This document shows, piece after piece, positions 104 through 13,638 of a DNA stretch of 13,828 bases. A program made the translations under genes and the position numbers. The DNA is from a bacterium (GTDB lineage Bacteria > BMS3Abin14): the NCBI GenBank assembly GCA_020349685.1, contig CP070698.1, positions 1,833,281 to 1,847,108 of the forward strand, written 5' to 3'. How positions within the stretch are numbered: the first letter of the stretch is position 1; each line of letters begins with the position of its first letter. The notes under the pieces were generated by a model, which worked only from the letters and a program-made list of their open reading frames with translations, was not told the DNA's origin and did not search any database.

Positions 104-258
104 GACTCGGAGACACGGGGACACGGAGACACGGAGAAAATGTTTCCCCCGCGGCGCTGCGTCGAAGACATTGAGAAGATCTCTCCCCGACACCCCGTTA
201 CTCCGATACCCCGATACCAGAATTTTTCTCCCCCTCACCCTCTCACCCCCTCTCCCCC
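104..258. repeat. Three 8-nt tandem arrays: (GACACGGA)x4 at 104-135, loosely inverted (CYCCGAYA-like)x4 at 185-216, and (TCWCCCCC)x4 at 227-258
   Basis: Read directly: gactcgga gacacggg gacacgga gacacgga ... ccccgaca ccccgtta ctccgata ccccgata ... tctccccc tcaccctc tcaccccc tctccccc. Confidence 0.85.
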
Positions 259-282
259 TCCCGGGCATCAAGAAAACCGGTT

Positions 283-299
283 CAGGCACCCATTTTGCA
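283..299 (+). promoter_or_regulatory. Putative sigma-54 (-24/-12) promoter of comF
   Basis: CAGGCACCCATTTTGCA: GG at 285-286, exactly 10 nt, GC at 297-298, matching the TGGCAC-N5-TTGC consensus. Predicted +1 is about 310 and the ATG is at 311. Confidence 0.62.
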
Positions 300-310
300 C
301 AGACTTTTGT

Positions 311-1042
311 ATGATTGTGCAAAATGTGGTGCGTGGTTTTCTTGATGCACTCTACCCCCCTTTCTGCCTTATCTGCGGCCGGCTGTCTGACGGGCCCTAT
401 CCCCACTGCTGCCCGGACTGTTTCCGCTCCTTCGAGCCCATCGGGACGTCGTGCTGCGAGCTCTGCGGGGAGCCGTTCCAGGACGGGCAGGTCCCGCATG
501 TGTGCCTTTCCTGTATCAGGCGACCTCCTCCCTTCGACTGGTGCCGCGGAGTTCTTCTTTACCGGGGCGCCCTGGCCGAGGCGCTGTCCAGGCTGAAATA
601 TTCCGGAGCGCTCCCCTTGCTGCAGCCCCTGGTTGAGGCCCTCCTTTCCAATCTGGGGGCCTCAGGTCCTCTCCCGGTTGTGGATGCGATAGTGCCGGTT
701 CCGCTTTCCCTCAAGGGGCTATGGAAGAGAGGGTTTAACCAATCAGTCCTCCTGGCCACGCCTGTGGCGCGGCATCTCAAGGTTAAGGTCCAGGAGGGAA
801 CGCTCAGGAAAAGGGGAGGCAAGCCGCAGGTGGGTATTGCGGCGTCCCAAAGGCACCGGAACGCCATGTCATCCTTTCTTCCGGGCCCGTCCATCGATCA
901 GGTGAAGGGGAAAAGACTCCTGCTTTTTGATGACGTGTTTACAACAGGAGCGACGGCAAGGGCCTGCGCCGGGATCCTGCGGGCAGAGGGCGCGAAGGTG
1001 TCGGTCCTGACGCTGGCAAGGGCGGGGAAGGCGAGTGTCTAG
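311..1042 (+). CDS. comF: ComF/GntX family competence protein (double zinc ribbon + PRTase-like domain)
   Basis: LYPPFCLIC...CPDC...CELCG...CLSC zinc ribbons, RGFNQ, and the LLFDDVFTTGAT PRPP-binding loop. Start moved from 140 to ATG 311 because 140-310 translates the repeat arrays and family-like sequence begins at MIVQ...FLDALYP. Confidence 0.9.
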   Translation: MIVQNVVRGFLDALYPPFCLICGRLSDGPYPHCCPDCFRSFEPIGTSCCELCGEPFQDGQVPHVCLSCIRRPPPFDWCRGVLLYRGALAEALSRLKYSGALPLLQPLVEALLSNLGASGPLPVVDAIVPVPLSLKGLWKRGFNQSVLLATPVARHLKVKVQEGTLRKRGGKPQVGIAASQRHRNAMSSFLPGPSIDQVKGKRLLLFDDVFTTGATARACAGILRAEGAKVSVLTLARAGKASV

Positions 1043-1157
1043 TGTCTGGTTCTGGTTTCTGGTAAAAAAACAGGTCTCCGCTATTTACTCTGGAACTGGA
1101 CGCCAGACACCAGAACTAGACGCTAGACACCAGAACTAGACACCAGAACTAGACACT
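1034..1157. repeat. Inverted pair of 6/7-nt tandem arrays (RGTGTCT/GGTTCT left; CYAGACA/CCAGAA right) between convergent comF and suhB
   Basis: Left 1034-1063: agtgtct agtgtct ggttct ggtttct ggt. Right 1090-1157: ctggaa ctggacg ccagaca ccagaa ctagacg ctagaca ccagaa ctagaca ccagaa ctagaca ct. Confidence 0.92.
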
Positions 1158-1955
1158 GGTTTTCAGTACTTCCACCATCTCCCTGTGGATCCTTCCGTTG
1201 CTTGCGAGAACTTTTGATCCATCCATCTTCAGTTCCCTGCCCTCGAAGTCGGTCGTTACGCCTCCGGCTTCCCGGATGATGAGGGCCCCGGCTGCGATGT
1301 CCCAGGGCTGGAGGTTCAGTTCCCAGAAACCGTCCAGCCTCCCGCTGGCTACGAAGCAAAGGTCGAGAGCGGCGCTCCCGCAGCGGCGGATGCCTTGCGT
1401 TCTCAGGGCGAAATTGCTGAAGTGGTCCAGGTTCGTTTCTGCCGTGTGCCTGATGTTGTAGGGAAAACCGGTCCCCAGGAGACTGTCATCGAGCTGCTGA
1501 GTCGAGGAGACCCGGATGGGCAGAGCGTTGAGGCTGGCTCCCTGCCCGCGGACGGCTGAGAAGAGCTCCTCCGATACCGGGTTGTAAACCACGCCGCACA
1601 GGACATCCTGTTCGTGGGCGACGGCGATGGATATGGAAAATACAGGGAAACGGTGCGCGTAATTTGTGGTCCCGTCCAGCGGGTCGACGATCCACCAGAA
1701 CCCTTGGGAACCCTTGATGTCAAGGTCTTCCTCGGCGAGGATACCGTGATGGGGGTACTTGAGATGGACCTCCTTCCTTATGAGGTCCTGGGCGGCCCTG
1801 TCCATTTCTGTGACGAGATCCAGCTCCCCCTTGTGGTCAACGGAAAAATCGGTGAGAAGGCGGTCTTTGAGGAGCTGCCCTGTAAGGCGGGAGATGCGGA
1901 TGGCATCCTCCAGGAGATCGGAAGGGCCGGGCTGTTGCTTATCGAGCGGGGTCAA
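1149..1955 (-). CDS. suhB: Inositol monophosphatase family protein (SuhB-like)
   Basis: Motifs DLVTEMD, AEE, WIVDPLDGTTNYAH, RRCGSAALDLC, WDIAAG. TTG start at 1955 is uncertain. Confidence 0.9.
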   Translation of the reverse strand: MTPLDKQQPGPSDLLEDAIRISRLTGQLLKDRLLTDFSVDHKGELDLVTEMDRAAQDLIRKEVHLKYPHHGILAEEDLDIKGSQGFWWIVDPLDGTTNYAHRFPVFSISIAVAHEQDVLCGVVYNPVSEELFSAVRGQGASLNALPIRVSSTQQLDDSLLGTGFPYNIRHTAETNLDHFSNFALRTQGIRRCGSAALDLCFVASGRLDGFWELNLQPWDIAAGALIIREAGGVTTDFEGRELKMDGSKVLASNGRIHREMVEVLKTSV

Positions 1956-1978
1956 TGGTATTAGAGTCTAATTGCAGC

Positions 1979-2134
1979 TTAGTTGTCGTCTACCAGCTTG
2001 AGACCATCGCTGCCCTTCTTGCGGTAGATCTTGATGGTGCTGCTGCAATAGGAGCAGTAGACGGATTCGCCGGGTTTCTCGTCACCGTCGAGGGTAAGAT
2101 CCGCATCGCAAACGGGACATTTGTAATCCTTCAT
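1979..2134 (-). CDS. Small (51 aa) zinc-ribbon protein, LysW-like fold
   Basis: MKDYKCPVCDADLTLDGDEKPGESVYCSYCSSTIKIY...: two CxxC pairs with LysW-like spacing. AAGGGAG Shine-Dalgarno upstream of ATG 2134. Ends 23 nt before the suhB start. Confidence 0.75.
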   Translation of the reverse strand: MKDYKCPVCDADLTLDGDEKPGESVYCSYCSSTIKIYRKKGSDGLKLVDDN

Positions 2135-2166
2135 GGCAGGCTCCCTTGGACTGTGAAGTGACCAGG

Positions 2167-4059
2167 ATGAAACGATATACCAATATGGGCTTTCTGGCAA
2201 TAATTCGCAGGGCTTTCCTGCCTCTTTTGTGTGCCGTGATGATGACGGGCCTCGTGGGCATCGGAGTCGTCAAGGCTCGCAAGGCAATGGCTGCCGTGGA
2301 GGATGCTTCCGCCGGGCCTGGATTTTCAGGATCCCGGCCCCGTCTCGAGGTGCTGGAGAGGAGGTTCTACCTCGCCTCGGAGGAGGAACGATCCCCGGTG
2401 CTGGACGAGATGCGTAAGCTGGGAACAGACGATGCCCTCGATTTCACCATGGATCTTCTCAGGTACCCGGACATCAAGGTCAGGCGGGAGGCTGTTGACG
2501 CCCTTAAAAAGTGGGGTCCCGAGGGCTACAAGGCTGTTTTCGGGGGCATGACCGATCCGGAGATCGACTGGCTGTGTGAAACGGTCTTCGTCGAACTGGG
2601 GCCGGCGGCCCTTCCTTTTCTCATCGATCAGTTGGGGCACAGCAGGCCTGACCACCGCGGACGGGCAGCCTACCTTCTGGGAAAGATCAAGGACCGCCGT
2701 GCCACGGGACCTTTGTACAGCAGGCTCAAGGACCCGGACAGGGATGTGAGGATCCAGGTTGTTCAGGCCCTGTGTGAACAGGGCGATGAAAGGTCCCTGG
2801 AGGGCATCCTCGACCTTTTCGAGTCAGAGGACGCTGGGCTGGCCGATTTTGTCATCAAGGCGGCCGAAAAGTTCGGGCCGAGGGCCGTTCCAACTCTCCG
2901 GGCGGCGTTAAAGAAGGGCAGCGTGAAGATCAGGAGCGGCGCGGCTCTGGCTATCGGGCGCATCAGGCTGCCTGGAGCGCTGCCCTCCCTTTTCGATGCC
3001 CTTGAAGATCCGGATGCCGGTGTTCGCCGAAGCGTGGTGAAAGCCCTGGATTCCTATCACAACGTGTCCACAGCCAGGGGTTTGTTCCTGGCGCTTCATG
3101 ATCCGGACCTCGAGGTCCAGGATTACGCCACCACAGCCCTGGCCAGGCTTTATCCGGGTATTTCCCAGGCCCTCATGGAAAGGATCCGGGATGAGGACCC
3201 TGGCATCAGGAAGAACGTCATTGCCGCTTTTCGCAAAGCGGGGGATAAAGAGGCTGTGCCGTTAATCATTCGCGCCCTGGACGATCCGGACCCCGACGTG
3301 CGCATGTTCGCGGTCACAGCACTCATCGAACTCAAGGATCCCCGGTCCATCCAGAGCCTCATTGCCAGAATGAAGATAGAGGACACCATGGGATGGCTTG
3401 TCTCCTACGCCCTCATGGAGCTGGGAGAAGTGGCGGTGGAGGCGCTCCTGAAGGAAACGGGTGACGACAGCTTCTGCCTCACCCGGAACCTGGTCATCCT
3501 GCAGATGGGAGAACGGGCCCTCGGGGCCCTGCACGAAAGGGCCAGAAACGGGGAGGGCACGGCCGTGCGCTACAACGCCATCGCTCTCCTCGGGGAATTG
3601 GGCAGCCCCGAGAGCGTGACGGTTCTGGAGGAGCTTCTCCGTTACGAGGAGGTGGGCTGGGTGGCCGCCAACGCCCTCGGGAATGTCGGGGAGCCGGCCT
3701 GGGAGGCCTTGAGCAGCGCCGCTGCCAGGGAAGGGGTCGCCGGTGACAACGCCCGCCACGCCATCAGCAGGTTGTGCGACCCGAAACTCTACCTGGAGTT
3801 TGTCGAGGCCCTCGATTCAGACCACGCCGGATTCCGGAGGGCGGTAGCCGAGCCCCTGGTGGCCGCCGGGGGGGCGGTGGTTCCCCTCGTTGTCGAGAAG
3901 ATGGCCCAACTGGAAGGACCCCAGTTCTCCGATGCGGTCGAGATCATCTGCAGGATCCAGGATCAGAAGGCCGTTCCTGCCATCAGCAGGGCCCTTTTCC
4001 CGGAAAACCGGGAATTGTCTTTTCTGAGGACGGAACAGCTTCAACAGCTCAGGCAGTAG
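2167..4059 (+). CDS. HEAT/PBS-lyase repeat protein with N-terminal export signal (start uncertain; may continue to 4161)
   Basis: Many L.D.D..VR..A..AL repeats (LKDPDRDVRIQVVQAL, LEDPDAGVRRSVVKAL, LDDPDPDVRMFAVTAL). N-terminus has RRAFL, a hydrophobic stretch and AMA. Confidence 0.85.
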   Translation: MKRYTNMGFLAIIRRAFLPLLCAVMMTGLVGIGVVKARKAMAAVEDASAGPGFSGSRPRLEVLERRFYLASEEERSPVLDEMRKLGTDDALDFTMDLLRYPDIKVRREAVDALKKWGPEGYKAVFGGMTDPEIDWLCETVFVELGPAALPFLIDQLGHSRPDHRGRAAYLLGKIKDRRATGPLYSRLKDPDRDVRIQVVQALCEQGDERSLEGILDLFESEDAGLADFVIKAAEKFGPRAVPTLRAALKKGSVKIRSGAALAIGRIRLPGALPSLFDALEDPDAGVRRSVVKALDSYHNVSTARGLFLALHDPDLEVQDYATTALARLYPGISQALMERIRDEDPGIRKNVIAAFRKAGDKEAVPLIIRALDDPDPDVRMFAVTALIELKDPRSIQSLIARMKIEDTMGWLVSYALMELGEVAVEALLKETGDDSFCLTRNLVILQMGERALGALHERARNGEGTAVRYNAIALLGELGSPESVTVLEELLRYEEVGWVAANALGNVGEPAWEALSSAAAREGVAGDNARHAISRLCDPKLYLEFVEALDSDHAGFRRAVAEPLVAAGGAVVPLVVEKMAQLEGPQFSDAVEIICRIQDQKAVPAISRALFPENRELSFLRTEQLQQLRQ

Positions 4060-4139
4060 TACGTCAGAAAGGGTTCATTGGAGCCGGTTCTGGCGCGCCT
4101 GCAAAGGGAAATGGATCGAGTCGGCAGCGGAGGAAGCCC

Positions 4140-4595
4140 ATGGGAACGGGCCGTACCTTAGTAGAGAACCGCCAGGCGCGCTTCAATTACGAGATACTGG
4201 AAAAGGTCGAGGCAGGGATAGCCCTTCTCGGGACCGAGGTCAAGTCCATCCGGGAGGGAAAGGCCAACATCAAGGAGGCTTATGCGGACATACGCGGCGG
4301 CGAAGTGTGGCTCACCGGTGCCCACATCAGCCCTTACTCCCACGGCAACATTACCAACCACGACCCTTTAAGAGACCGAAAACTGCTGCTAACCGGAATG
4401 GAGATCAGCAGGCTCCAGGGCAAGGTCATGGAAAAGGGGCTGACCCTCATTCCACTGCGCCTGTACCTGAAGGGCCGGCTCATTAAGCTTGAGCTCGGGG
4501 TCGGACGCGGCAAGAAACTCGTGGACAAGAGGGAGGATATCAAGAAGCGTGATCAGCAGCGGGAAATACAGAGAGAATTAAAGGATCGCGGATGA
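4140..4595 (+). CDS. smpB: SsrA-binding protein SmpB
   Basis: NRQARFNYEILEKVEAGIALLGTEVKSIREG, HDPLRDRKLLL, GLTLIPLRLY, GKKLVDKRE. GGAGG Shine-Dalgarno before ATG 4140 (151 aa). Confidence 0.97.
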   Translation: MGTGRTLVENRQARFNYEILEKVEAGIALLGTEVKSIREGKANIKEAYADIRGGEVWLTGAHISPYSHGNITNHDPLRDRKLLLTGMEISRLQGKVMEKGLTLIPLRLYLKGRLIKLELGVGRGKKLVDKREDIKKRDQQREIQRELKDRG

Positions 4596-4615
4596 GTCTT
4601 TCGATGCTGATCACG

Positions 4616-4732
4616 CTGGTGTCTGGTTTCTAGTGTCTTGTGTCTAGAAACAGGACATAGAGCAAAACAGGAATGGCGGCCTTAAGGCCGCCCGCTTATT
4701 AGCTAGACACCAGAATCTAGACACGAGACACT
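4616..4732. repeat. Inverted CTAGACA-family heptamer arrays flanking a perfect 18-bp palindrome
   Basis: Left 4616-4647: ctggtgtctggtttctagtgtcttgtgtctag. Right 4703-4732: ctagaca ccagaat ctagaca cgagaca ct. Core palindrome GGCGGCCTTAAGGCCGCC at 4675-4692. Confidence 0.88.
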
Positions 4733-4733
4733 G

Positions 4734-4775
4734 TACCAATAAAAAGGTGGTCAAAAGCCCACCTTTTTATTGGTA
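4734..4775. terminator. Probable bidirectional intrinsic terminator between smpB and the hcp-like gene
   Basis: Perfect 17-bp inverted repeat TACCAATAAAAAGGTGG-N8-CCACCTTTTTATTGGTA, giving a T-tract on both strands. Overlaps the hcp-like stop codon. Confidence 0.8.
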
Positions 4776-5261
4776 TTCCACCTGCTTGAAGCTCACCGTG
4801 ACAATTTCCGTATCTTTCCCGTCGCGTTTCTTCTTCCCCGGCTCTACGGACAGGATCTTCACCTTTCTCAGGATCAGGGACTTGAATTGACCCAGGTCCG
4901 AGCCGGTAAGTTCGATGCGGATGTGAGACAGCTGGACCTTGCTCTGGCAGCACAGGGCGAGCATCCTGGAAGATCGATCGACCTCTTTTTCAAAGGAAAA
5001 GTCACCGAAGTGCAGTTTCCCTGCATTTCCTTCTCCATCCAGGGGAAGCATGGAACCCCTGGGCGCGGGCACGGAACCGAAATCGCACGAGATTACCTCG
5101 ATCCAGTTGCGATGGGCGGGCTCGGGGCTGCTTCCGGGTATCCCGGGCATATAAAGGAAGGCGTAGGTGTCCGATGCAGCCCGTGCCGTGGCTGTCATTC
5201 CGCATAAAAAGAGCAGGGCCGATAGAAAAATGAAACCGCTGGTTCTGATTATCCCCCTCAC
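4767..5261 (-). CDS. Hcp-like (type VI secretion tube, DUF796) protein with a Sec-type signal peptide
   Basis: AFLYMPGIPGSS...HRNWIEVIS, FGDFSFEKEVDRSSRMLALCC and EIVTVSFKQVEY follow the Hcp pattern (FLKIDGI.GES...HKDWIEVLS...DFSF.K.VDKASP.L...C...E.V.L.Y). N-terminal n/h/c regions end in ARA-A. GTG start. Confidence 0.8.
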   Translation of the reverse strand: MRGIIRTSGFIFLSALLFLCGMTATARAASDTYAFLYMPGIPGSSPEPAHRNWIEVISCDFGSVPAPRGSMLPLDGEGNAGKLHFGDFSFEKEVDRSSRMLALCCQSKVQLSHIRIELTGSDLGQFKSLILRKVKILSVEPGKKKRDGKDTEIVTVSFKQVEYQ

Positions 5262-5328
5262 AGCACAACCCCCGGTATCGGATGTTTCAGTGCCGGGTCA
5301 GGCAACGAAACAAAACTTTCTTTTACCT

Positions 5329-5337
5329 ATTATAACA
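5329..5337 (-). promoter_or_regulatory. Extended -10 sigma-70 promoter for the hcp-like gene
   Basis: Minus strand reads TGTTATAAT (TGn + perfect TATAAT), about 70 nt upstream of the GTG start. No clear -35. Confidence 0.6.
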
Positions 5338-5553
5338 ATACGTCAGGACCGGATCATGGTTACGCAAAGGATCCCCCGCAAGGGAGAGAACGGGATCCTT
5401 GTAAAGTAGACACCCGATAGAAGGTAAAGTTTAAGGATGTTTTCGGTCAGGGATACGGGTCTGAAGTTTGATGGAGGAAACCATGTCCGGGTCCATGAGG
5501 TCTTCGCGCCGGCTTTCCCTGATCAAATGTTCCGTATTTTTAACTGAGCGCCC

Positions 5554-5598
5554 TTGACACCCTGACTATTTATGTATATATGAACAGATAATCATATA
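5554..5598 (+). promoter_or_regulatory. Sigma-70 promoter overlapped by an SmtB/ArsR-type operator
   Basis: TTGACA 5554-5559, 17 nt, then TATATG 5577-5582. Inverted repeat TATATGA-acagataa-TCATATA (5577-5598) resembles the SmtB/CzrA operator core. Confidence 0.75.
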
Positions 5599-5614
5599 GA
5601 TAGAGGTGTTGCCA

Positions 5615-5974
5615 ATGACGGATAACCAGGATCTGTGCCAGAGCAGGGTGATCCACGAGGAAAAGATCGCGCGCGCGCGCAGGAGGGCTCTCGGAGCGCA
5701 GGACGTAGACTGCGTCACGAGAACCTTCAAGGCCATGGGCGACCCCACGCGCCTGAAGATCCTGTGGGCTCTCGAGCCGGGCGAGATGTGTGTCTGTGAC
5801 ATCGCTGCCCATCTGGAGGTCACCGAATCGGCGGTGAGCCATCAGCTGAGGATCCTCAGGCACCTGGACCTGGTGTCCAACCGGAGGCAAGGAACAATCC
5901 TCTATTACAGGCTCAACGACCGGCATGTCAGCCAACTCATTGATCTTGCGCTGGAGCATGTGCGAGAGCCGTGA
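5615..5974 (+). CDS. ArsR/SmtB family metal-responsive repressor
   Basis: FKAMGDPTRLKIL, EMCVCDIA, SAVSHQLRILR HTH, and C-terminal D-x-H-x10-H-x2-E (alpha5 site). GAGGT Shine-Dalgarno 7 nt before ATG 5615 (alternative GTG 5606). Confidence 0.93.
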   Translation: MTDNQDLCQSRVIHEEKIARARRRALGAQDVDCVTRTFKAMGDPTRLKILWALEPGEMCVCDIAAHLEVTESAVSHQLRILRHLDLVSNRRQGTILYYRLNDRHVSQLIDLALEHVREP

Positions 5975-6105
5975 TTCGTGAATCGTGAGTCGTTATTCGA
6001 ACTTACTGTTTAAAAAAGCCTTAGAGGGCTATTTCCCAAATCACGAATCAAAAATGGCTGATTCAGCTTTATTGCAAATCACGAATCACAAATTACGAAT
6101 CACGA
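5970..6105. repeat. Inverted CGTGAWT / AATCACG heptamer arrays between arsR and the permease
   Basis: Left 5970-5999: cgtgatt cgtgaat cgtgagt cgttatt cg. Right: 6039-6055 aatcacg aatcaaa aat and 6077-6105 aatcacg aatcaca aattacg aatcacg a. Confidence 0.9.
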
Positions 6106-6114
6106 GAAGGGAAA

Positions 6115-7332
6115 ATGGCATTGATAAATTTCATCAATTTTACCGATATTGTTCTTAAGGAGACATTTTCCCTTCTTTTAGACGCCTCCCCTTATATCCT
6201 CTTCGGGATCCTGGTGGCGGGCCTGCTCAAGATGTTCCTGTCCACCGATTATATCGTGCGGAACTTAGGCAGCGGCCGCTTCAAGCCGGTTTTCAAGGCC
6301 GCCCTTCTGGGGATACCCATTCCCCTTTGTTCCTGTGGTGTCCTGCCGGCGGCGGCTTCCCTCAGAAAGCAGGGAGCGAGCAAAGGTGCTACCACGGCCT
6401 TCCTCATATCCACACCAGAATCCGGTGTCGACTCCATCGCCGTCTCGTGGGCTCTTCTCGATCCCGTCATGACGGTGGCGAGGCCTCTGGTGGCTTTCGT
6501 AACGGCCTTTACAGCCGGTCTGTCGCAGGCTCTTTTGGGGGAAAGCCAGGATGGTGTCGTAAAGAATGTGGACAACAGCTGCGCTGTAGACGGGTGCTGC
6601 GATGGATCGGACTGCGATCCCGTTGAACATAGCAACCACCATTCCTTCGGGGAAAAGCTGGCCGGAGGGATGAAGTACGCTTTCGGGGAACTGTGGGGAG
6701 ACCTGGCGGGATGGTTTGCAGTGGGTCTTCTCCTGGCAGGGGTTATCACGGCCATGGATCCCGATGAGCTTGTCACGGGCTACCTGGGCGGAGGACTTGT
6801 CGCCATGCTGCTCATGCTGGTGGTGGGGATACCCCTTTACATCTGCGCCACCGCTTCCACCCCCATCGCCGCCGCGCTCATTCTCAAGGGAGTCAGCCCC
6901 GGCGCGGCCCTCGTGTTCCTGCTGGTGGGTCCCGCTACCAACGTGGCCTCCCTCTCGGTCCTCGTGGGCATGCTCGGGAAAAAGGCAGTGGCGATCTACC
7001 TGGGAGCCATTGCCGTCGTCAGCGTTGTGGCGGGATTGGCGCTGGACTGGTTCTATGGACTGTCGGGCATCGCCGCCAGGGCCGTGGTGGGTCAGGCTGC
7101 CGAGATAATCCCCGTGTCCTGGCAGTACCTTTCTGCAGGTGTCCTGGTCCTCATCTCCATCAAGCCTCTCGGACGGACCCTCAGGGGGTGGCTGGGGAAA
7201 ATACGACCGGCGCGAAAGGAGACGGCAGCCGCCTCCTGCGGATGTGCTGGAGAAACGCAGTGTGTGGATTCCCTACCCCCGACCCCCGACCCCCGACCAC
7301 AGACCCCGGACCCTGGCTTGCCAGCCGTTTGA
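6115..7332 (+). CDS. Predicted metal efflux permease (SO_0444 / ArsP_1, DUF318 family)
   Basis: GIPIPLCSCGVLPAAASLRKQGASKGATTAFLISTPESGVDS and GIPLYICATASTPIAA...GVSPGAALVFLLVGPATN motifs. Multiple TM helices, a central Cys/His-rich loop, and position downstream of the ArsR gene. Confidence 0.87.
   Translation: MALINFINFTDIVLKETFSLLLDASPYILFGILVAGLLKMFLSTDYIVRNLGSGRFKPVFKAALLGIPIPLCSCGVLPAAASLRKQGASKGATTAFLISTPESGVDSIAVSWALLDPVMTVARPLVAFVTAFTAGLSQALLGESQDGVVKNVDNSCAVDGCCDGSDCDPVEHSNHHSFGEKLAGGMKYAFGELWGDLAGWFAVGLLLAGVITAMDPDELVTGYLGGGLVAMLLMLVVGIPLYICATASTPIAAALILKGVSPGAALVFLLVGPATNVASLSVLVGMLGKKAVAIYLGAIAVVSVVAGLALDWFYGLSGIAARAVVGQAAEIIPVSWQYLSAGVLVLISIKPLGRTLRGWLGKIRPARKETAAASCGCAGETQCVDSLPPTPDPRPQTPDPGLPAV
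7275..7316 (+). repeat. ACCCCCG-type heptamer array (6 units) inside the permease 3' end
   Basis: acccccg acccccg acccccg accacag accccgg accctgg, encoding PPTPDPRPQTPDPG. Confidence 0.85.
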
Positions 7333-7333
7333 T

Positions 7334-7379
7334 CTTCCGCAGCTTTACGCGAAGGCGGAAGCTTCAAGCAAAGGCTGGA
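7334..7379 (-). repeat. REP-like imperfect palindrome plus a degenerate tandem copy; related copy at 12575-12617
   Basis: Reverse complement of 7334-7359 (tccgccttcgcgtaaagctgcggaag) matches 12575-12600 (tcctccttcgcctgaagccacggagg) at 20/26 positions. Confidence 0.55.
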
Positions 7380-7390
7380 CAGTTAGACAC

Positions 7391-7419
7391 TAGACACTGC
7401 TTCCTCTCTCCCTTATAGT
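7391..7419 (+). promoter_or_regulatory. Putative sigma-70 promoter of carB; -35 formed by a CTAGACA repeat unit
   Basis: TAGACA 7391-7396, 17 nt, TATAGT 7414-7419 (5/6 match for each box). The -35 lies in the short array ctggaca gttagaca ctagaca ct (7375-7398). Confidence 0.55.
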
Positions 7420-7474
7420 CCTCTGGACGCCCTCCTCAAAGAATTGTCCTGAGACGGTCGGGGGGGCGAAATAC

Positions 7475-7579
7475 AGTCCAAAGCCCAAAGCCCAAAGACC
7501 AAAGGGGATGATCAGGTTTGAAGTTTGAGGTTTGAAGTTTGAGGTTTGTATTTAAAACCCAAAACTCAAAACTCAAAAC
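7475..7579. repeat. Three further heptamer arrays upstream of carB: (AGCCCAA)x4, (ARGTTTG)x5, (AAAACTC)x3.5
   Basis: 7475-7504 agtccaa agcccaa agcccaa agaccaa ag; 7514-7548 aggtttg aagtttg aggtttg aagtttg aggtttg; 7554-7579 aaaaccc aaaactc aaaactc aaaac. Confidence 0.9.
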
Positions 7580-7610
7580 AGGTTGACTCCAGTCAACTAT
7601 GGAGGGGTCC

Positions 7611-10600
7611 ATGCCCACTTACGACGACATCCGCAAGGTTATGATCATCGGTTCCGGTCCCATCGTCATCGGACAGGCCTGCGAATTCGACTACTCCGGC
7701 ACACAGGCGTGCAAGGCGCTCCGTGCGCTCGGGTACGAGATCGTCCTGGCCAACTCCAACCCGGCGACGATCATGACCGATCCCGGCATGGCGGACGCAA
7801 CTTACATCGAACCGCTGACCCTCGAGCGCATGAAGGAGATCATCGAGATCGAAAAGCCCGATGCTCTCCTGCCGAACCTCGGAGGACAGTCAGGCTTGAA
7901 CCTCTCCTCCGAGCTTTCCAGAAAGGGCGTGCTCAGTGAAAACGGGGTCCGTATCATCGGCGTCACGGTGGACGCCATCGAACGGGGAGAGGACCGGCTC
8001 GCCTTCAAGGAGACCATGAAACGCCTCGGTCTCGACCTTCCCAGGAGCGAGATCGCCCGCAGTCTCGAAGAGGCCGAACGGTTCGCCGCAGAGCTGGGAT
8101 ATCCTGTCGTGATACGCCCGGCCTACACCATGGGCGGTACGGGAGGAGGTCTCGTCTACAACCGGGAGGAGCTCGAGGTCATCGCGGGCAGGGGCCTCGC
8201 GGCCAGCCTCGTGGGCCAGGTTCTTGTGGAGGAGTCGGTCCTGGGGTGGGAGGAACTGGAACTGGAGGTCGTGCGGGATGCCAGGAACCAGATCATCACG
8301 GTGTGCTTTATCGAGAACGTGGACGCCATGGGGGTGCACACCGGAGATTCCTTCTGCACCGCTCCCATGCTTACCATCTCCCCCGAACTTCAGGCCAAGC
8401 TCCAGGACTATTCCTACCGTATCGTTGAGGCCATAGAGGTCATCGGGGGCACCAACATCCAGTTCGCTCACGACCCCGAGACCGGCCGCGTCGTGGTCAT
8501 CGAGATCAACCCCAGGACTTCCAGGTCCTCGGCCCTTGCCTCCAAGGCAACCGGGTTTCCCATCGCTCTCGTTTCGTCAAAGCTCGCCGGTGGGCTGGTG
8601 CTGGACGACCTGCCTTACTGGAAGGGGGGCACCCTTGAGCAATACGCCCCATGGGGTGAGTACGTGGTGGTGAAGTTCGCGCGATGGGCCTTCGAAAAAT
8701 TCCATGACGTGCCCGACAAGCTCGGGACGCAGATGAGGGCTGTCGGGGAAGCCATGAGCATCGCCCGGACCTACAAGGAGGCGTTCTTAAAGTCCATCCG
8801 GTCCCTCGAGATCGGTCGTTACGGTCTGGGTTTTGCCAAGAATTTCAATGAGCTCGGCCTTTCTGAGCTCATGGAGCTTCTCGCCGAACCGTCCAGCGAG
8901 CGCCAGTTCATAATGTACGAGGCCCTGCGCAAGGGCGCCAAGGTGGAGGATCTTTTCGCCAGAACCCACATCAAGCCCTGGTTCATCGAGCAGATGAGGG
9001 AGCTGGTGGAGCTGGAGGAGGAGATCCTCAAGTACAAGGGAGGCGTGCTGCCGGATGACATCCTCGAAATGGCCAAGAAGGACGGCTTTGCCGACCGGTA
9101 CCTGGCCATGCTGCTTCAGATCCCCGAAAAGGAGATCCGCCAGAGGCGCGAGGCTATCGGTGTCGTTCCCGGATATCAGGCGCTCCCCGTGAGCGGGGTC
9201 GAGGACGCGGCCTACTATTATTCGACCTACAACGTCCCCGATAATGTTGATACAAGCGGCCGGAAGAAGATCATGGTCCTGGGCGGCGGACCCAACCGCA
9301 TCGGCCAGGGGATCGAGTTCGACTACTGCTGCGTCCACGCCGCTTTCGCCATCCGCGAGGCGGGCTTCGAGTCGATCATGGTCAATTGCAACCCCGAGAC
9401 GGTCTCCACCGACTACGATACCTCCGATAAGCTGTACTTCGAGCCGCTGACGGTGGAGGATGTGCTGGCCATCTACGAGAAGGAAAAGCCGGAAGGGGTC
9501 ATCGTCCAGTTCGGGGGCCAGACCCCCCTTAACATAGCAAGGGAGCTTCTGGAGGCCGGCCTCCCCATCGTCGGGACCTCCCCGGAGGCCATCGACCTGG
9601 CCGAGGACCGCGACCGGTTCAGGCAGATGATGGAAAAACTGGGTATTCCCATGCCCGAATCGGGAATGGCCAGCAACATGGACCAGGCACTGGAGGTGGC
9701 CGGGAAGATCGGATACCCCCTGATGGTCAGGCCCTCCTACGTCCTTGGCGGCCGGGCCATGGAGATCGTGAGGGACGAGGCCATGCTCCGGGAGTATGTT
9801 TCCCAGGCTGTGGTCGTCACACCGGACCGCCCCATCCTCATCGACAGGTTTCTAGAGGACGCCATCGAGGCGGAGGCCGACGCCATTGCGGACGGCAGCG
9901 ACGCCTTTGTGCCGGCGGTCATGGAGCACATCGAGCTCGCGGGGGTGCACTCGGGGGACTCGGCCTGCGTCATCCCCCCCATCAGCATACCCGAAAAGCA
10001 TATCGAGACGATCGTGCAGTACACCAGGAAGATCGCCATGGAGCTTAACGTGGTGGGGCTCATGAACATCCAGTATGCCATCTGTGATGACGCGGTGTAC
10101 GTCCTGGAGGCCAACCCGAGGGCCTCGCGCACCGTCCCCCTGGTGTCGAAGGTCTGCAACATCTCCATGGCCAACATGGCCACCAAGATCATGCTGGGTG
10201 CCAAGCTGGCTGACATGAATCTGGAGCATAAGCGCATCCCCCATTACGGAGTCAAGGAGGCGGTCTTCCCCTTCAACATGTTCCCGGAAGAGGATCCGGT
10301 TCTCGGACCGGAGATGAGATCCACGGGTGAGGTCCTCGGTATGGCCTCCTCCTTCGGGCTGGCTTACAGCAAGGCCCAGGAGGCCGCCCTGTCACCGCTT
10401 CCCGCAGGGGGAACGGTCCTCATAACGGTGACGGACAGGGACAAGAACGCCATTTTGGAGGTGGCACGGAAGTTCTCGGAACTGGGATTCGAACTTCTCT
10501 GCACGGAGGGTACGTCCCGGTTCCTGGAGGAAAAAGGCATACCAAGCGGTGTGGTGAAGAAATACCACGAAGGGCGTCCCAACCTCGTGGATTCCATCAA

Positions 10601-10811
10601 GAACGGCCAGATACAGCTGATCATCAACACCCCCAGCGGGAAGACGAGCGCCGAGGACGACTCCTATATCCGTAAGGCCGCCATCAAGCACAAGGTTCCT
10701 TTCATCACGACGGCCACGGCGGCGCTGGCCGCCGTCCGCGGGATCGAGGAGCAGAGGAAGGAAAGGGGCGCCGTCAAGTCGCTCCAGGCGTATCACGGGG
10801 AGATAAAATAA
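7611..10811 (+). CDS. carB: Carbamoyl-phosphate synthase large subunit
   Basis: IIGSGPIVIGQACEFDYSGTQACKAL, NSNPATIMTD, MGVHTGDS, IEINPRTSRSSALASKATG, second half GGGPNRIGQGIEFDYCCVH and HSGDS, and a C-terminal MGS domain. GGAGGGG Shine-Dalgarno before ATG 7611 (1066 aa). Confidence 0.98.
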   Translation: MPTYDDIRKVMIIGSGPIVIGQACEFDYSGTQACKALRALGYEIVLANSNPATIMTDPGMADATYIEPLTLERMKEIIEIEKPDALLPNLGGQSGLNLSSELSRKGVLSENGVRIIGVTVDAIERGEDRLAFKETMKRLGLDLPRSEIARSLEEAERFAAELGYPVVIRPAYTMGGTGGGLVYNREELEVIAGRGLAASLVGQVLVEESVLGWEELELEVVRDARNQIITVCFIENVDAMGVHTGDSFCTAPMLTISPELQAKLQDYSYRIVEAIEVIGGTNIQFAHDPETGRVVVIEINPRTSRSSALASKATGFPIALVSSKLAGGLVLDDLPYWKGGTLEQYAPWGEYVVVKFARWAFEKFHDVPDKLGTQMRAVGEAMSIARTYKEAFLKSIRSLEIGRYGLGFAKNFNELGLSELMELLAEPSSERQFIMYEALRKGAKVEDLFARTHIKPWFIEQMRELVELEEEILKYKGGVLPDDILEMAKKDGFADRYLAMLLQIPEKEIRQRREAIGVVPGYQALPVSGVEDAAYYYSTYNVPDNVDTSGRKKIMVLGGGPNRIGQGIEFDYCCVHAAFAIREAGFESIMVNCNPETVSTDYDTSDKLYFEPLTVEDVLAIYEKEKPEGVIVQFGGQTPLNIARELLEAGLPIVGTSPEAIDLAEDRDRFRQMMEKLGIPMPESGMASNMDQALEVAGKIGYPLMVRPSYVLGGRAMEIVRDEAMLREYVSQAVVVTPDRPILIDRFLEDAIEAEADAIADGSDAFVPAVMEHIELAGVHSGDSACVIPPISIPEKHIETIVQYTRKIAMELNVVGLMNIQYAICDDAVYVLEANPRASRTVPLVSKVCNISMANMATKIMLGAKLADMNLEHKRIPHYGVKEAVFPFNMFPEEDPVLGPEMRSTGEVLGMASSFGLAYSKAQEAALSPLPAGGTVLITVTDRDKNAILEVARKFSELGFELLCTEGTSRFLEEKGIPSGVVKKYHEGRPNLVDSIKNGQIQLIINTPSGKTSAEDDSYIRKAAIKHKVPFITTATAALAAVRGIEEQRKERGAVKSLQAYHGEIK

Positions 10812-10815
10812 GAGA

Positions 10816-11017
10816 AGTGTCTAGTTCCAGTGTCTGGTGTCTAGTTTCTGGTTCTGGTTTCTAGAAGGTTTTCAAAGCGACGGCTGAAGCCTCAATCCAT
10901 ATTTTTTTTAATATTCTTTTCCTCTGCGTCCCTTCGCGTACTCTGCGTTTAATTAGTATAAACCGTTTTTAAAACAACAGCTCTTTTGCCAGACACCAGA
11001 TACTGGAACTAGACGCT
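10816..11017. repeat. About 200-bp element bounded by inverted CTAGACA-family arrays, with an internal CTCTGCG-type 9/10-mer array
   Basis: Left 10816-10864, right 10989-11017. The first 29 nt of the left arm match the reverse complement of the right arm at 26/29. Internal ctctgcgtc-c-cttcgcgta-ctctgcgtt at 10922-10949. Confidence 0.88.
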
Positions 11018-11048
11018 GAATCTTGACGGCATGAAGCCGCCGATTTTC

Positions 11049-12506
11049 TTATCTATCAAGCAATCGTTTCTCGCCGTCAAGATTCCTTATCTCCGTCACG
11101 TCCTGGCTGACCTCGAGGCATCCCTCGTATTTTCCGCTCTCGTCCCGTATGGCGAAGTAGCGTATGAGGATGAACTGGCCGCCCATCTGGATCCAGAAGT
11201 CGGCGGTGTCCCTGCTGCCGTCGCGGAAGCTGTCGAGGATCTCCTGGACTACATGAACGCTGGAGGGCGGATGGCAGTTCTGCACCTCCCGTCCGATGAT
11301 CCCGGGGCTGCGGGGGAAGATCCTCTCCGGCTGGGCCGAGTAATACTGGACCTTGTCCTGGGCGTCCACGAAGGTGATGTCCACGGGGAGGCTGGTGAGG
11401 ATGAGGTCCAGCTGTTTCGGATTGAGGCCCCCGGTGGACAGCCACAGGGGCGCCTCACCTCCGCCGGGGCGGGGCGGCGGGGCTTCGCTCAACGGACCTG
11501 TTGAGGCCTGCCAGCCGGTCTCGGGTTCTATGAGGGCGTACCCGATCTCTTCGCTGCCTTCGAGAACCCGTCCCCAGTCGGACTCTGAGAGGATCTCCAT
11601 GGCCATGGGAAAGAGGATGTTCTCCTCCTTGTAGATCATGTCGGAGATGATCGTCACAAGGGCGGTGCCCTCGCCCAAGATGATCTCGTTATCCCCGTTC
11701 TCGAGCCCTGTCCGGAGCTCCTTGAAGATGCTGCGGATATCGTCGTGCAGGGCCCACATGACCTTGGAAGGCCCCGTGACCCCGTGTTTTTCCAGCATGG
11801 GGAACAGCTGGTTTTCCTTCCTGAGGTAGTGTTTTTCGATCTGGGCCAGGTCCACGAACAGACCCTTGAGCTCCTCTATCCATGCCTGTCCGGTCTCCTG
11901 GTCCGGAGGATCGGTAAGCTCCTCGAGAAGGAACCGGATCCGGTCTGCCACCTCTCCCAGGGCCGCGTTTTCCTTGCGGAAGGTGTCCACGGGATGACCG
12001 GCGGGGACCTTGGGTGGTTCGGCGCCCTCGAAGGATTCCGCGAAGACCTGAACGTGGACATCGCAAAGGTTCTTGATCTCCTCGGCGCTGATCCCCTCCT
12101 TGATAAGAGACTGTTCCATCTCGGCGATCTCGGAGGCGGAGACCTCCCTGAGCATGGCGGCGAAGCGCGCCTTCTGCGTCTCAGGGGCGATCCCCTCGTG
12201 GAGGCCGCGGACGATCTCTTTTAACGATTCGATGCGCTCAGCCCGTTCCTCGGGCGTTTGGGCCGGTTTTTCCCCGGCGCCGGCAGGTGCGTGGATCATG
12301 GCCTCGGATATTTTTCTCGACAGTTCCTCGAAAGGAACGCCGCTTGTCTGGGCCGCGTGTTCGAGGGTGGCGAAGCGGCCGATGGTTTTCCTGAGCAGGG
12401 GGTTGCGAAGTTTCTTGAATTCCGGGGAAATGCCCACCAGGACCTCCAGGAGGTTGGGGTTCTCCTCGAGGAGCTGAAGGACTTTGGTGTTCTTGTCGAT
12501 CTTCAT
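11049..12506 (-). CDS. DUF1858-DUF438-hemerythrin-PAS domain protein (DUF438 family)
   Basis: N-terminal F.KLRNPLLRKTIGRFATL (DUF1858); EIAEMEQSLI...LCDVH (DUF438); GHPV...EN...HYLRKENQLFP...MWALHDDIR...MIYKEENILFP (hemerythrin HHE); LPVDITFVD...IIGREVQNCHPP (PAS_10). GGAGGT Shine-Dalgarno. Confidence 0.9.
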   Translation of the reverse strand: MKIDKNTKVLQLLEENPNLLEVLVGISPEFKKLRNPLLRKTIGRFATLEHAAQTSGVPFEELSRKISEAMIHAPAGAGEKPAQTPEERAERIESLKEIVRGLHEGIAPETQKARFAAMLREVSASEIAEMEQSLIKEGISAEEIKNLCDVHVQVFAESFEGAEPPKVPAGHPVDTFRKENAALGEVADRIRFLLEELTDPPDQETGQAWIEELKGLFVDLAQIEKHYLRKENQLFPMLEKHGVTGPSKVMWALHDDIRSIFKELRTGLENGDNEIILGEGTALVTIISDMIYKEENILFPMAMEILSESDWGRVLEGSEEIGYALIEPETGWQASTGPLSEAPPPRPGGGEAPLWLSTGGLNPKQLDLILTSLPVDITFVDAQDKVQYYSAQPERIFPRSPGIIGREVQNCHPPSSVHVVQEILDSFRDGSRDTADFWIQMGGQFILIRYFAIRDESGKYEGCLEVSQDVTEIRNLDGEKRLLDR

Positions 12507-12574
12507 AGGTCACCTCCGGTGGTGGTGATTGATTTCAGATCCCATCCGCTTTCCCTGGCGCCTGCCGATCAGCT

Positions 12575-12617
12575 TCCTCCTTCGCCTGAAGCCACGGAGG
12601 GCAGGACGGCGGACAGG
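12575..12617 (+). repeat. REP-like imperfect palindrome with duplicated 3' tail (ACGGAGGGCAGG ACGGCGGACAGG)
   Basis: Similar to 7334-7359 in the opposite orientation. The 12-nt tail is repeated directly (12594-12605, 12606-12617). Confidence 0.55.
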
Positions 12618-12657
12618 GATTCCAGGTTTCGAAAATATTATCAACTCTGATGGAAAA

Positions 12658-12699
12658 AATATAACAGATCTGGTGAGACCCTGCGTTGATGCCGGTCAA
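12658..12699 (-). promoter_or_regulatory. Class II FNR/CRP-family (HcpR/Dnr-like) activated promoter of the DUF438 gene
   Basis: TTGAT-gccg-GTCAA at 12686-12699 (centre 12692.5). Minus-strand extended -10 TGtTATATT has its -12 base at 12663, which puts the box centre at -41.5. Confidence 0.7.
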
Positions 12700-12709
12700 G
12701 TTTAAATGC

Positions 12710-12737
12710 CGCGATTCGTGACTCGCGATTCGTGACT
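12710..12737. repeat. CGYGAYT heptamer array (perfect 14-bp duplication), same family as 5970-5999
   Basis: cgcgatt cgtgact cgcgatt cgtgact. Confidence 0.8.
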
Positions 12738-12770
12738 GGTAAAACAGGTGATCCTGAAAACCGTCGATAC

Positions 12771-13577
12771 TCAGTCGATGCCGAAATAGAGGCGGACCAG
12801 GCGCTGGACCAGCCAGTCGGGCAGGAAGCGTCTTAGCTCCAGCAGCCGGGAATCGTATCCCACACGGTACCTGAACCGGGGTGAGCCGGCCCTCGCGATC
12901 CTCAGGACGGTCCTGGCGACCTTTTCGGGGTTTCCTCCTTTTTCCAGGTACCTTGAATACGCTTTTTCAAAGCGATCCTTAGGGATCGAGTATGCCGGCA
13001 TATTCATCGAAGCGGCCGCCCTGTTTTCGCGGATACTCGTCAGGATGAAGCCGGGCTGGACGACCGAGGCGGATATCCCGGTGTGCTTCAGTTCCTGGCG
13101 GAGTCCTTCCGTGTAGAGGTTGAGCGCGGCCTTGGAGGCGGAATAGAGCCCCTCGAAGGGCATGGCGAAATCGGCAGCCCCGGAGGAGATGTTGACGATC
13201 CGGCCGTAACCCCTCTCCCGCATACCCGGAAGCACGGCGTTGACCATGCGGAAAGCTCCGAAAAAGTTGGTCTGGAACTGCAAGACCGCATCGGTGTCAG
13301 AGCACTCTTCGAGGGCGCCGAGAATGAGATAGCCGGCGTTGTTCACCAGGATGTCGACACCTCCAGCCTCCTGCGTGACGGCCCTTATGCACTCCGTTAC
13401 CGATTGATCAGATCTTACATCGAGAGGCAGCAGCGCAACCTCCGGGATCTCCGGACACCGCTCCGGCTGGCGGCTCGTTCCGAAGACGCGATAACCCTTC
13501 TGTCCGAAGAGCGCCGCTACTTCGCGTCCGATCCCCGAGGAGACTCCCGTGACGAGAACGGTTTTAGGATCTGCCAT
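12771..13577 (-). CDS. Short-chain dehydrogenase/reductase (classical SDR)
   Basis: TGVSSGIG Rossmann motif, DILVNNAG, NISS, YSASK catalytic motif, QPG. GGAGG Shine-Dalgarno before ATG 13577 (268 aa). Confidence 0.93.
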   Translation of the reverse strand: MADPKTVLVTGVSSGIGREVAALFGQKGYRVFGTSRQPERCPEIPEVALLPLDVRSDQSVTECIRAVTQEAGGVDILVNNAGYLILGALEECSDTDAVLQFQTNFFGAFRMVNAVLPGMRERGYGRIVNISSGAADFAMPFEGLYSASKAALNLYTEGLRQELKHTGISASVVQPGFILTSIRENRAAASMNMPAYSIPKDRFEKAYSRYLEKGGNPEKVARTVLRIARAGSPRFRYRVGYDSRLLELRRFLPDWLVQRLVRLYFGID

Positions 13578-13638
13578 ACGCCCTTCCTCCCTTCTGAACC
13601 GACAGTGTAATACGGATCTACTCTCAATCAAAACTCTC

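Follow-up and report, generated by a model that had tools for sequence, protein, structure and literature searches.

Why should the gaps between the genes of one bacterium carry short tandem arrays of so many different units, often facing each other as inverted pairs? The question is raised by a 13,828-nt stretch of contig CP070698.1 (assembly GCA_020349685.1, lineage BMS3Abin14), called the window here, in which an earlier note, made from the sequence alone, reported arrays in seven intergenic gaps and one coding sequence. According to that note, the gaps share an architecture—a G-rich left arm shortly after a gene, a short core and a C-rich right arm in inverted orientation—and may be copies or scars of a mobile or repeat-writing system. 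TRF finds arrays at all seven gaps and returns 27 rows in the window, where a Markov-3 control (383 rows per 2 Mb) predicts about 2.6 (Table 1).

Table 1. Tandem arrays and inverted pairs in the window (positions within the window)
Feature	Position	Strand	Basis and details
Solo G-rich array, GACACGGA x4.2	104..137	+	TRF; 17 nt past the stop of the preceding gene (85-87)
Two C-rich arrays, CCCCGATA x4.2 (185-218) and CCCCCTCA x3.9 (230-260)	185..260	+	TRF
Inverted pair, convergent comF / suhB	1035..1157	.	arms 1035-1062 and 1103-1157; core 1063-1102
Inverted pair, smpB / hcp	4619..4731	.	arms 4619-4647 and 4703-4731; z -5.8
Inverted pair, arsR / ArsP-type permease gene	5970..6104	.	arms CGTGAAT 5970-5997 and AATCACG 6077-6104; z -4.2
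CCCGACC x6.1 array inside CDS	7271..7313	+	TRF; C-terminal tail of ArsP-type permease ORF
Four arrays upstream of carB, pairing weak or absent	7384..7579	+	TRF; fold z -0.8 and -1.5
Inverted pair, carB / DUF438/hemerythrin/PAS gene	10816..11017	.	left array 10816-10862; right arm 10991-11017
Two copies of 14-nt unit CGCGATTCGTGACT, unpaired	12710..12737	+	TRF; z -1.9

The shared architecture stands in four of the seven gaps, which hold true inverted pairs, and fails in the other three, where the arrays are unpaired; to that extent the reported arrays and their inverted layout are confirmed in part. Arms of the four pairs measure 27-29 nt, with 82-93% complementarity, and give stems of 22-27 bp that fold well on either strand (z -4.0 to -6.8) and were matched by none of 200 shuffles. 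The comF-suhB pair (-56.8 kcal/mol, z -6.8) has left-arm units GTGTCTAG and GTTCTGG, a unique, single-copy core and the TAG stops of both genes within its arms. A 7-bp GC hairpin lies in the core of the smpB-hcp pair (4648-4702), and the pair downstream of carB forms a 27-bp stem (z -6.6; arm match 10816-10842/10991-11017) around a 128-nt, AT-rich core that contains a further CTCTGCG-type array and is otherwise unique in the genome. The reported position of the left arm, just past a gene, is borne out. Three stop codons fall within the first repeat unit, those of comF (1040-1042), arsR (5972-5974) and, on the minus strand, suhB (1149-1151); the carB and smpB stops precede their arms by 4 and 23 nt. 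Folding in the gaps 104-260, 7375-7579 and 12710-12737 is no better than in shuffles (z -0.8 to -1.9). The first of these nevertheless keeps the G-rich-left, C-rich-right layout; its C-rich arrays, upstream of the likely comF start (~311), show no complementarity to 104-137 (z -1.7). The arrays ahead of carB are TAGACAC x2, CCAAAGC x3.9, GTTTGAR x4.7 and AAAACTC x3.7. In the permease ORF, nucleotide similarity to a same-genus genome (G001) ends at 7245, ahead of the CCCGACC array.

Across the 2.03-Mb genome, TRF returns 2501 rows against 383 in the Markov-3 control and 1015 period-7 rows against 40; a stricter detector of our own finds 544 period-7 arrays against 3. The 1015 rows comprise 218 distinct canonical heptamers, the commonest being ACACTAG, AGATCTC, AAATCTC and ACACCAG, and unit families recur at tens of loci in the genome and in several genera. 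By our own crude ORF model of gene context, which misses smpB in the window, 1336 of 2014 merged arrays are intergenic, covering 42,356 of 395,499 intergenic bases (10.7%). With roughly a tenth of its intergenic DNA made of arrays, the genome is an extreme case, and its DNA also turns up in sediment and estuary metagenomes of eight studies. Lengths are set rather than spread: the period-7 histogram peaks at 24-31 nt, with medians of 27 nt (period 7) and 27-27.5 nt (period 8), whether the arrays are paired or unpaired.

Pairing is likewise a property of the whole genome. Among 981 pairs of neighbouring arrays, those less than 200 nt apart are inverted in 124 cases and direct in 11, and the ratio falls to parity at larger distances. 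A random sample gives a similar picture, 110 of 393 arrays having an inverted partner within 250 nt and 13 a direct one. About one third of all arrays form inverted pairs around a unique core; some 60-70% are without a detectable partner, yet have the same length and polarity as the paired ones. The polarity that had been read from the window is borne out as well: in 465 of 746 arrays (p = 2e-11) the G-rich strand, read 5' to 3', leads away from the neighbouring gene, and in 52 of 72 pairs the left arm is the G-richer, independently of the strand read. It is a bias of 62-72%, not an absolute rule. Arrays adjoin stops as often as starts, and on both sides the G-rich strand leads off from the gene next to it.

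Comparison with related genomes tells how the arrays are gained. Empty sites exist for the comF-suhB gap, the smpB-hcp gap and one site between divergent genes: comF and suhB have no gap at the site in eight of eight other genera examined, and the smpB-hcp gap of the same-genus genome carries no arrays. At the divergent-gene site one genome (G000) holds a PF05635 gene cassette, another (G002) a gene-less pair, and two (G001 and G007) neither; older sequence was replaced at the insertion, and no target-site duplication is visible at the junctions compared. Arrays thus enter the space between genes by insertion or replacement of DNA and have not grown out of older sequence. Orthologous sites in different species of one genus carry different units. 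In the same-genus genome, the arsR-permease gap has related units in both arms and the gap upstream of carB has a GGTTTGA array. After gain, unit number changes by whole units, as slippage would change it. Such variation between populations was found in contigs of other runs, with one extra TCGTGAA unit at 5975 in contigs of three of four runs and one extra CAAAACT unit at 7559 in contigs of all four. Slippage, to which single arrays had been ascribed, therefore does occur, but it accounts for neither the set length, the polarity nor the recurrence of families across loci and genera.

The arrays have the marks of the class known as STRR or long simple-sequence repeats, with head-to-tail units of about 7 nt at many, mostly intergenic loci and in several families. 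We think it probable that they belong to this heptanucleotide class, together with the paired heptamers of Xanthomonas and Geobacter, and that their roles are the following. Pairs in transcripts would fold into stems of 22-28 bp; these may be processed by an enzyme of the RNase III type, or may insulate neighbouring genes in the role of stability or terminator hairpins, and the same stems may carry small PF05635 four-helix-bundle genes in the manner of 23S rRNA intervening sequences. Any such role in transcripts is an inference of ours. Since the 60-70% of arrays that are unpaired share length and polarity with the rest, stem function cannot explain the whole class.

The link to PF05635 gives rise to another reading. 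The earlier note mentioned similar arrays next to small four-helix-bundle and GxxExxY genes in other bacteria; the latter family (PF13366) was not found in the 82%-complete genome, and the former is enriched between arms. Six PF05635/TIGR02436 genes occur in the genome outside the window, one cut by a contig end, and all five complete ones lie between inverted arrays 470-585 nt apart, with a different unit at each. In other phyla, 28 of 67 PF05635 loci are bracketed in this way against none of 125 shifted controls (0/62 and 0/63), and the polarity holds in 26 of the 28. Of the six genes in the present genome, three score 93-125 bits with TIGR02436, whose cut-off is 24. The gene-less pairs could thus be relics or non-autonomous copies of a portable PF05635 (S23p/Avd-like) cassette with which the arrays have spread, a reading that fits the divergent-gene site with its cassette, gene-less pair and empty states. 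In agreement with it, two window families, GTGTCTRG and CCGATACC (the latter from the arrays at 185-260 and an arm unit in one cassette), are also arm families of cassettes. However, the window pairs, with cores of 40-128 nt, contain no PF05635/TIGR02436 ORF, and blastn-short finds no second copy of their cores in the rest of the genome. In a strict test, just 224 of 1735 arrays belong to the six cassette arm families, and PF05635 genes per Mb do not follow array density in 24 sampled genomes (Spearman 0.24, p = 0.26): G019 has nine genes and one array in 40 kb, G014 no gene and ten arrays in 18 kb. No target-site duplication is visible either, and one cassette has kept its place in different genera, which points to stability more than to mobility. 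We therefore regard spread with a cassette as unlikely. The wider proposal, that the arrays are non-autonomous copies or scars left by a mobile element, finds no support, since the cores are single-copy, copy number does not follow density and no RVT_1 reverse transcriptase was found in the 82%-complete genome. The earlier interpretation as a whole is partly supported: of the three outcomes that the note named as refuting it, a lack of pairing or polarity bias, a lack of empty sites and a lack of any gene family enriched between arms, none was observed. More specific elements were rejected: a MITE, as the cores share no internal sequence and the junctions compared show no target-site duplication, and a REP/BIME with RAYT, as neither of the two Y1_Tnp genes in the genome is flanked by matching inverted arrays.

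On a further reading, length and polarity could be set by a dedicated activity that extends the 3' ends left by a break or nick with some 27 nt of repeat, much as at telomeres, the G-rich strand being directed inward on both sides and the intervening DNA left as the core. A strand-independent polarity such as that seen here and in the cassettes of other phyla is what 3'-end extension at the two sides of a break should produce; the equal length in nucleotides of arrays with 7- and 8-nt units and the way insertions take the place of older sequence fit as well. PF05635 is related to Avd, the accessory protein of diversity-generating retroelements (PMC10053308), although the genes match the NCBIfam Avd model weakly (20-21 bits against a cut-off of 80). 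In contrast, no enzyme candidate was identified and no RVT_1 reverse transcriptase was found in the 82%-complete genome, a large number of templates would be required for more than 200 unit types, and the polarity is not absolute; we hold such an activity to be decidedly improbable. A version in which the arrays are written rather than slipped, with the 3' ends that flank a break or the base of a hairpin at gene boundaries each extended by about 27 nt and the PF05635 genes riding in or assisting, is improbable too. If true, it would cover at once the polarity across more than 200 units and several phyla, the equal length, the replaced sequence and the gene-family enrichment. Very improbable in our judgement is that the arrays are neutral slippage products without function or dedicated mechanism, their inverted pairs coming from template switches at small hairpins already in place. 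Whole-unit indels between populations and the small hairpin often found in cores would agree with it, and arms of the GTGTCTRG family are slightly more alike within a pair than between loci (0.40 vs 0.33, p = 0.006). Yet the ATCTCAG family has no such extra likeness (0.57 vs 0.61), the length distribution is peaked rather than decaying, the polarity is far from chance, and most of the distant genomes sampled stand at about background, 1 array per 10 kb. Least probable is that each unit family is bound by a protein of its own, a global DNA- or RNA-binding regulator; this has been proposed in Geobacter metallireducens, where comparable pairs were annotated as 'putative global regulator binding sites' (PMC2700814). 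The recurrence of families at many loci and in several genera and a fixed ~27 nt, compatible with a protein footprint, speak for it, but 218 heptamers in 2 Mb are far above any plausible regulator set, units differ at orthologous sites within one genus, and stops are adjoined as often as starts.

The assignment to the heptanucleotide class rests on comparison with systems already described, and both the empty sites and the population variation in unit number supply concrete loci for experiments. STRR heptanucleotides were reportedly described in Calothrix and Anabaena by Mazel et al. in 1990, and long SSRs are said to have been treated by Mrazek et al. in 2007. Both comprise tandem heptamers in several families per genome at many intergenic loci; the present case differs in its host, an uncultured sediment bacterium, where the original STRR definition names heterocystous cyanobacteria, and in the prominence of inverted pairing. 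Bacterial tandem heptamers have been on record since 1990 and, to our knowledge, neither their origin nor their function is agreed upon. REP/BIME elements and MITEs are similarly intergenic and hairpin-forming and often lie at gene ends or between convergent genes, whereas the arms here are tandem arrays rather than a conserved palindromic unit and the cores are unique. According to Warrier et al. (2016, PMC4990558), in the part of their description compared, the S23p intervening sequence of Coxiella burnetii has a 28-bp stem with strain-variable tandem heptamers, and RNase III cleaves this stem in vitro. It resembles the cassettes in placing a PF05635-type ORF between terminal inverted repeats with heptamers, and the window stems come close to it in length; the window pairs, however, are gene-less, with no cassette in the window, and the cassettes seen all lie between protein-coding genes rather than in helix 45 or 25 of 23S rRNA. 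For Geobacter metallireducens, Aklujkar et al. (2009, PMC2700814) list four classes of paired sites, with four or five octa- or heptanucleotides in tandem at each site, and the parts of that account compared here describe, as in the present genome, several classes mostly paired on opposite strands at variable distance. Its units (GTTGCTYN, MTYCTGA, GGACCGG) are different and were interpreted as protein-binding sites, and those parts mention neither polarity nor a four-helix-bundle link. A close description, as far as the sections compared go, concerns the GGGAATC heptamers of Xanthomonas (Rehm et al. 2015, PMC4692102): each genome has 70-75 convergent inverted pairs, about four units are preferred, and G-rich repeats follow a stop where they lie on the sense strand and precede an ORF where they lie on the antisense strand. 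The same sections, which also cover the GGGGA(C/T)T repeats of Nostoc, note that repeat length varies between species while the repeat type is kept. Intergenic heptamers of about four units, convergent inverted pairs and a matching G-rich polarity are all found here, and the inverted architecture and its polarity are thus already published for one unit family. In contrast to that single G-tract family, read as G-quadruplex-forming, more than 200 unit types occur here; the commonest units and the four window pairs are without a G3 tract. Since most units lack G3 and those of 7 and 8 nt alike add up to 27 nt, the quadruplex is not the common denominator. Three rules known from single families—about four units, inverted pairing and a G-rich strand leading away from the gene—hold across hundreds of unrelated units, and the question therefore moves from any particular sequence to the process or constraint that sets length and polarity.

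The tests proposed in the earlier note have outcomes that favour an element that is non-random and polar, is of the insertion type and has one gene family enriched between its arms, and the underlying observation proved largely right. Short tandem arrays are present in all seven intergenic gaps named there, and 27 TRF rows lie within the 13.8-kb window, compared with about 2.6 predicted from a genome copy generated by a third-order Markov model (383 TRF rows per 2 Mb). The inverted architecture described for these gaps is borne out by true inverted pairs in four, whereas the arrays of the other three fold no better than shuffles. The arms of the four pairs measure 27–29 nt, are 82–93% complementary, and are predicted to form continuous 22–27 bp stems on either strand (z −4.0 to −6.8; 0/200 shuffles as good). 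They touch the adjoining genes: comF and suhB each end in a TAG, and arsR in a TGA, that falls within a repeat unit. An Rfam scan of the window at gathering threshold gave no matches. Hairpins of the ordinary type at 4734–4775 and 11018–11085, one a perfect 17-bp inverted repeat and the other 18 nt at 89%, lie immediately beyond right arms, where they extend into the 3′ ends of the hcp and DUF438 genes; the array pairs therefore come on top of conventional terminator-like structures.

Genes of the window, identified by Pfam matches
Gene	Position	Strand	Source
comF-like	about 311–1042	plus	Pfam
suhB	1149–1955	minus	Pfam
HEAT-repeat protein	2146–4059		Pfam
smpB	end 4595		Pfam
Hcp-like gene	4767–5261	minus	Pfam
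arsR	5606–5974		Pfam
ArsP-type permease	6115–7332		Pfam
carB	7599–10811		Pfam
DUF438/hemerythrin/PAS gene	11049–12506	minus	Pfam
short-chain dehydrogenase	12771–13631	minus	Pfam

The longest smpB ORF (3774–4595) shares about 285 nt with the end of the HEAT-repeat gene; since the SmpB domain begins only at residue 130, the true start codon probably lies near 4150. No carA adjoins carB within the window. Two relatives' genomes each yielded two carB matches, at 77% and 52% identity in G003 and at 89% (partial, residues 4–392) and 55% in G004.

The assembly containing the window (2.03 Mb in 344 pieces joined by N runs, 82% complete) holds 2501 TRF rows versus 383 in the control, or 1015 versus 40 at period 7 only, and 218 distinct canonical units are represented among the 1015 heptamer rows. 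A crude gene model of our own, by which the window's smpB went uncalled, places 1336 of the 2014 merged arrays between genes; these occupy 42,356 of 395,499 intergenic bases, and at least one array lies in 444 of 994 clean gaps. Neighbouring arrays less than 200 nt apart comprise 124 inverted and 11 direct cases among 981 neighbour pairs; the corresponding figures are 2 and 2 of 366 at 200–400 nt, and 14 and 24 of 1030 at 800–1500 nt. When 500 of the 1179 intergenic arrays were drawn at random and 107 with N in their flanks removed, an inverted partner within 250 nt was found for 110 of the remaining 393 and a direct partner for 13. Roughly one array in three is therefore a hairpin arm; the others are solitary. 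Period-7 array lengths peak at 24–31 nt and show no decay with length; medians are 27 nt with 7-nt units and 27–27.5 nt with 8-nt units, the same in paired and unpaired arrays. Array length has a set-point that is counted in nucleotides, not units.

The G-richer arm is the left one in 52 of 72 pairs (the 124 inverted pairs minus 32 adjoining contig joins and 20 that overlap gene calls). A G-rich-left/C-rich-right pair is unchanged in appearance by reverse complementation; because it reads alike on both strands, the polarity belongs to the element and not to the strand read or to contig orientation. Among the 746 intergenic arrays of period 6–9 with non-zero skew, 465 have the G-rich strand pointing outward from the nearer gene (odds ratio 2.7, p = 2e-11), with outward:inward ratios of 284:163 beside stops and 181:118 beside starts, and unpaired arrays display the same outward polarity (328:194). 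The polarity, described in the earlier note as fixed, is thus intrinsic to the element, but it amounts to a bias of 62–72% in the genome and is not absolute. Stop codons were rejected as its cause, stop triplets being equally common on the outward and inward strands (363 versus 352 of 688), as was a tie to gene direction (31 versus 23 in tandem gene contexts). No cumulative skew pattern was seen in this assembly of joined pieces.

The enriched family is the four-helix-bundle family PF05635 (23S rRNA intervening-sequence protein; NCBIfam TIGR02436, "four helix bundle protein"), of which the genome has six copies, one of them cut by a contig end and left out of the count. All five complete copies are flanked by inverted arrays, 470–585 nt apart and with a different unit each time; two of the five arm units belong to families present in the window. 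The five proteins show only 29–36% identity to the first, and one of these cassettes is kept in place in the same-genus genome G001 and in the relatives G002 and G007. A scan of species-representative genomes provided 80 relatives from many phyla, 67 of which had at least 350 nt on either side and were assessed. Arrays occur on both sides in 41 of these 67 loci and a clear inverted pair in 28, compared with 0/62 and 0/63 for pseudo-gene controls shifted left or right; in 26 of these 28 pairs the G-richer arm is the left one. GxxExxY genes, the other kind named in the earlier note beside such arrays, did not appear, as no GxxExxY/PDDEXK_3 gene was found in the 82%-complete genome. At G000:C1:1432317-1432905 (locus L169 of the window's own genome, G000), the space from a G-rich GAGAGGGG array to a C-rich CCCACTCT array holds a hydrophobic ORF of 125 aa that matches no Pfam family above cut-off; genes of a second type may be enclosed here by inverted arms of the same polarity. 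A further gene, at G000:C1:139396-140059, which from its translation and not from a family scan we take to be rpmB (ribosomal protein L28), is flanked by arrays with inverted 6-mers in common. Arrays can also bracket ordinary genes, possibly by chance among common unit families.

G001 is syntenic over the window, its genes having 67–81% nucleotide identity, and its arrays occupy the same gaps, save that between smpB and hcp, which has none. Units akin to those of the window are found in the arsR–permease and permease–carB gaps and at the suhB end; those downstream of carB are unrelated. A different dispersed intergenic motif, recognised by eye in G001 (locus L013, reverse complement; ...CATTGCGAG... 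/ ...CTCGCAATGAC...), sits near 930–1030, 2030, and 12270, in several of these same gaps. In other genera, suhB and comF meet at their 3′ ends without a gap, as judged by eye, in all eight loci examined (a ninth stops at the gene end); the comF–suhB element was therefore gained by insertion in this genus's ancestor. A divergent-gene site exists in three states: a plain 55-nt palindrome, the older sequence, common to G001 and G007 and lost from G002 and G000, a GTGAACT/TTCACTC pair without a gene in G002, and a four-helix-bundle gene flanked by GATTAGT/ACTAATC arms in G000. No target-site duplication is visible there in G002 or G000. Metagenome contigs from four runs of four studies carry one extra whole unit at each of two sites, TCGTGAA at 5975 (three runs) and CAAAACT at 7559 (four runs), in populations that otherwise show scattered substitutions relative to the window. 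Apparent core swaps at 1060–1132 in such contigs were discarded, the shorter side being merely 20–33 letters of repeated arm and probably derived from other loci. Inverted duplication of a specific arm was likewise rejected, being weak in one unit family and absent in a second.

The element would most likely work as an RNA stem where genes meet, on the model of the S23p intervening sequence of Coxiella, for which a 28-bp terminal stem, tandem heptamers variable by strain, and stem cleavage by RNase III in vitro are described (Warrier et al. 2016, PMC4990558). Such a role cannot account for the unpaired majority of arrays, whose length and polarity match those of paired ones. No evidence was found that the pairs in the window arose as copies of a mobile element: as MITE candidates, the cores gave only self-matches when blasted against the genome, except for the array within core 4, and since these cores are single-copy, the window pairs are not copies of one element. 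Nor was any candidate found for a writing enzyme. PF05635 has a reported likeness to Avd, a protein of diversity-generating retroelements (PMC10053308); no reverse transcriptase (RVT_1) was found in the 82%-complete genome. A RAYT-like system was dismissed, as neither of two Y1 transposase genes has matching flanking arms, and so was the idea that array density is driven by the number of PF05635 copies (genes per Mb versus density, Spearman 0.24, p 0.26, across 24 genomes sampled at only 4–40 kb each, in stretches selected by contigs of known length).

No published statement of a general link between PF05635 and heptamer arms was found, Coxiella being the sole case. The array element itself falls in a repeat class that has been published. 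In Geobacter metallireducens, paired sites in four classes have been described, every class consisting of octa- or heptanucleotides in tandem runs of four or five (Aklujkar et al. 2009, PMC2700814). The GGGAATC arrays of Xanthomonas, as reported by Rehm et al. 2015 (PMC4692102), have the same architecture and polarity as the arrays found here.
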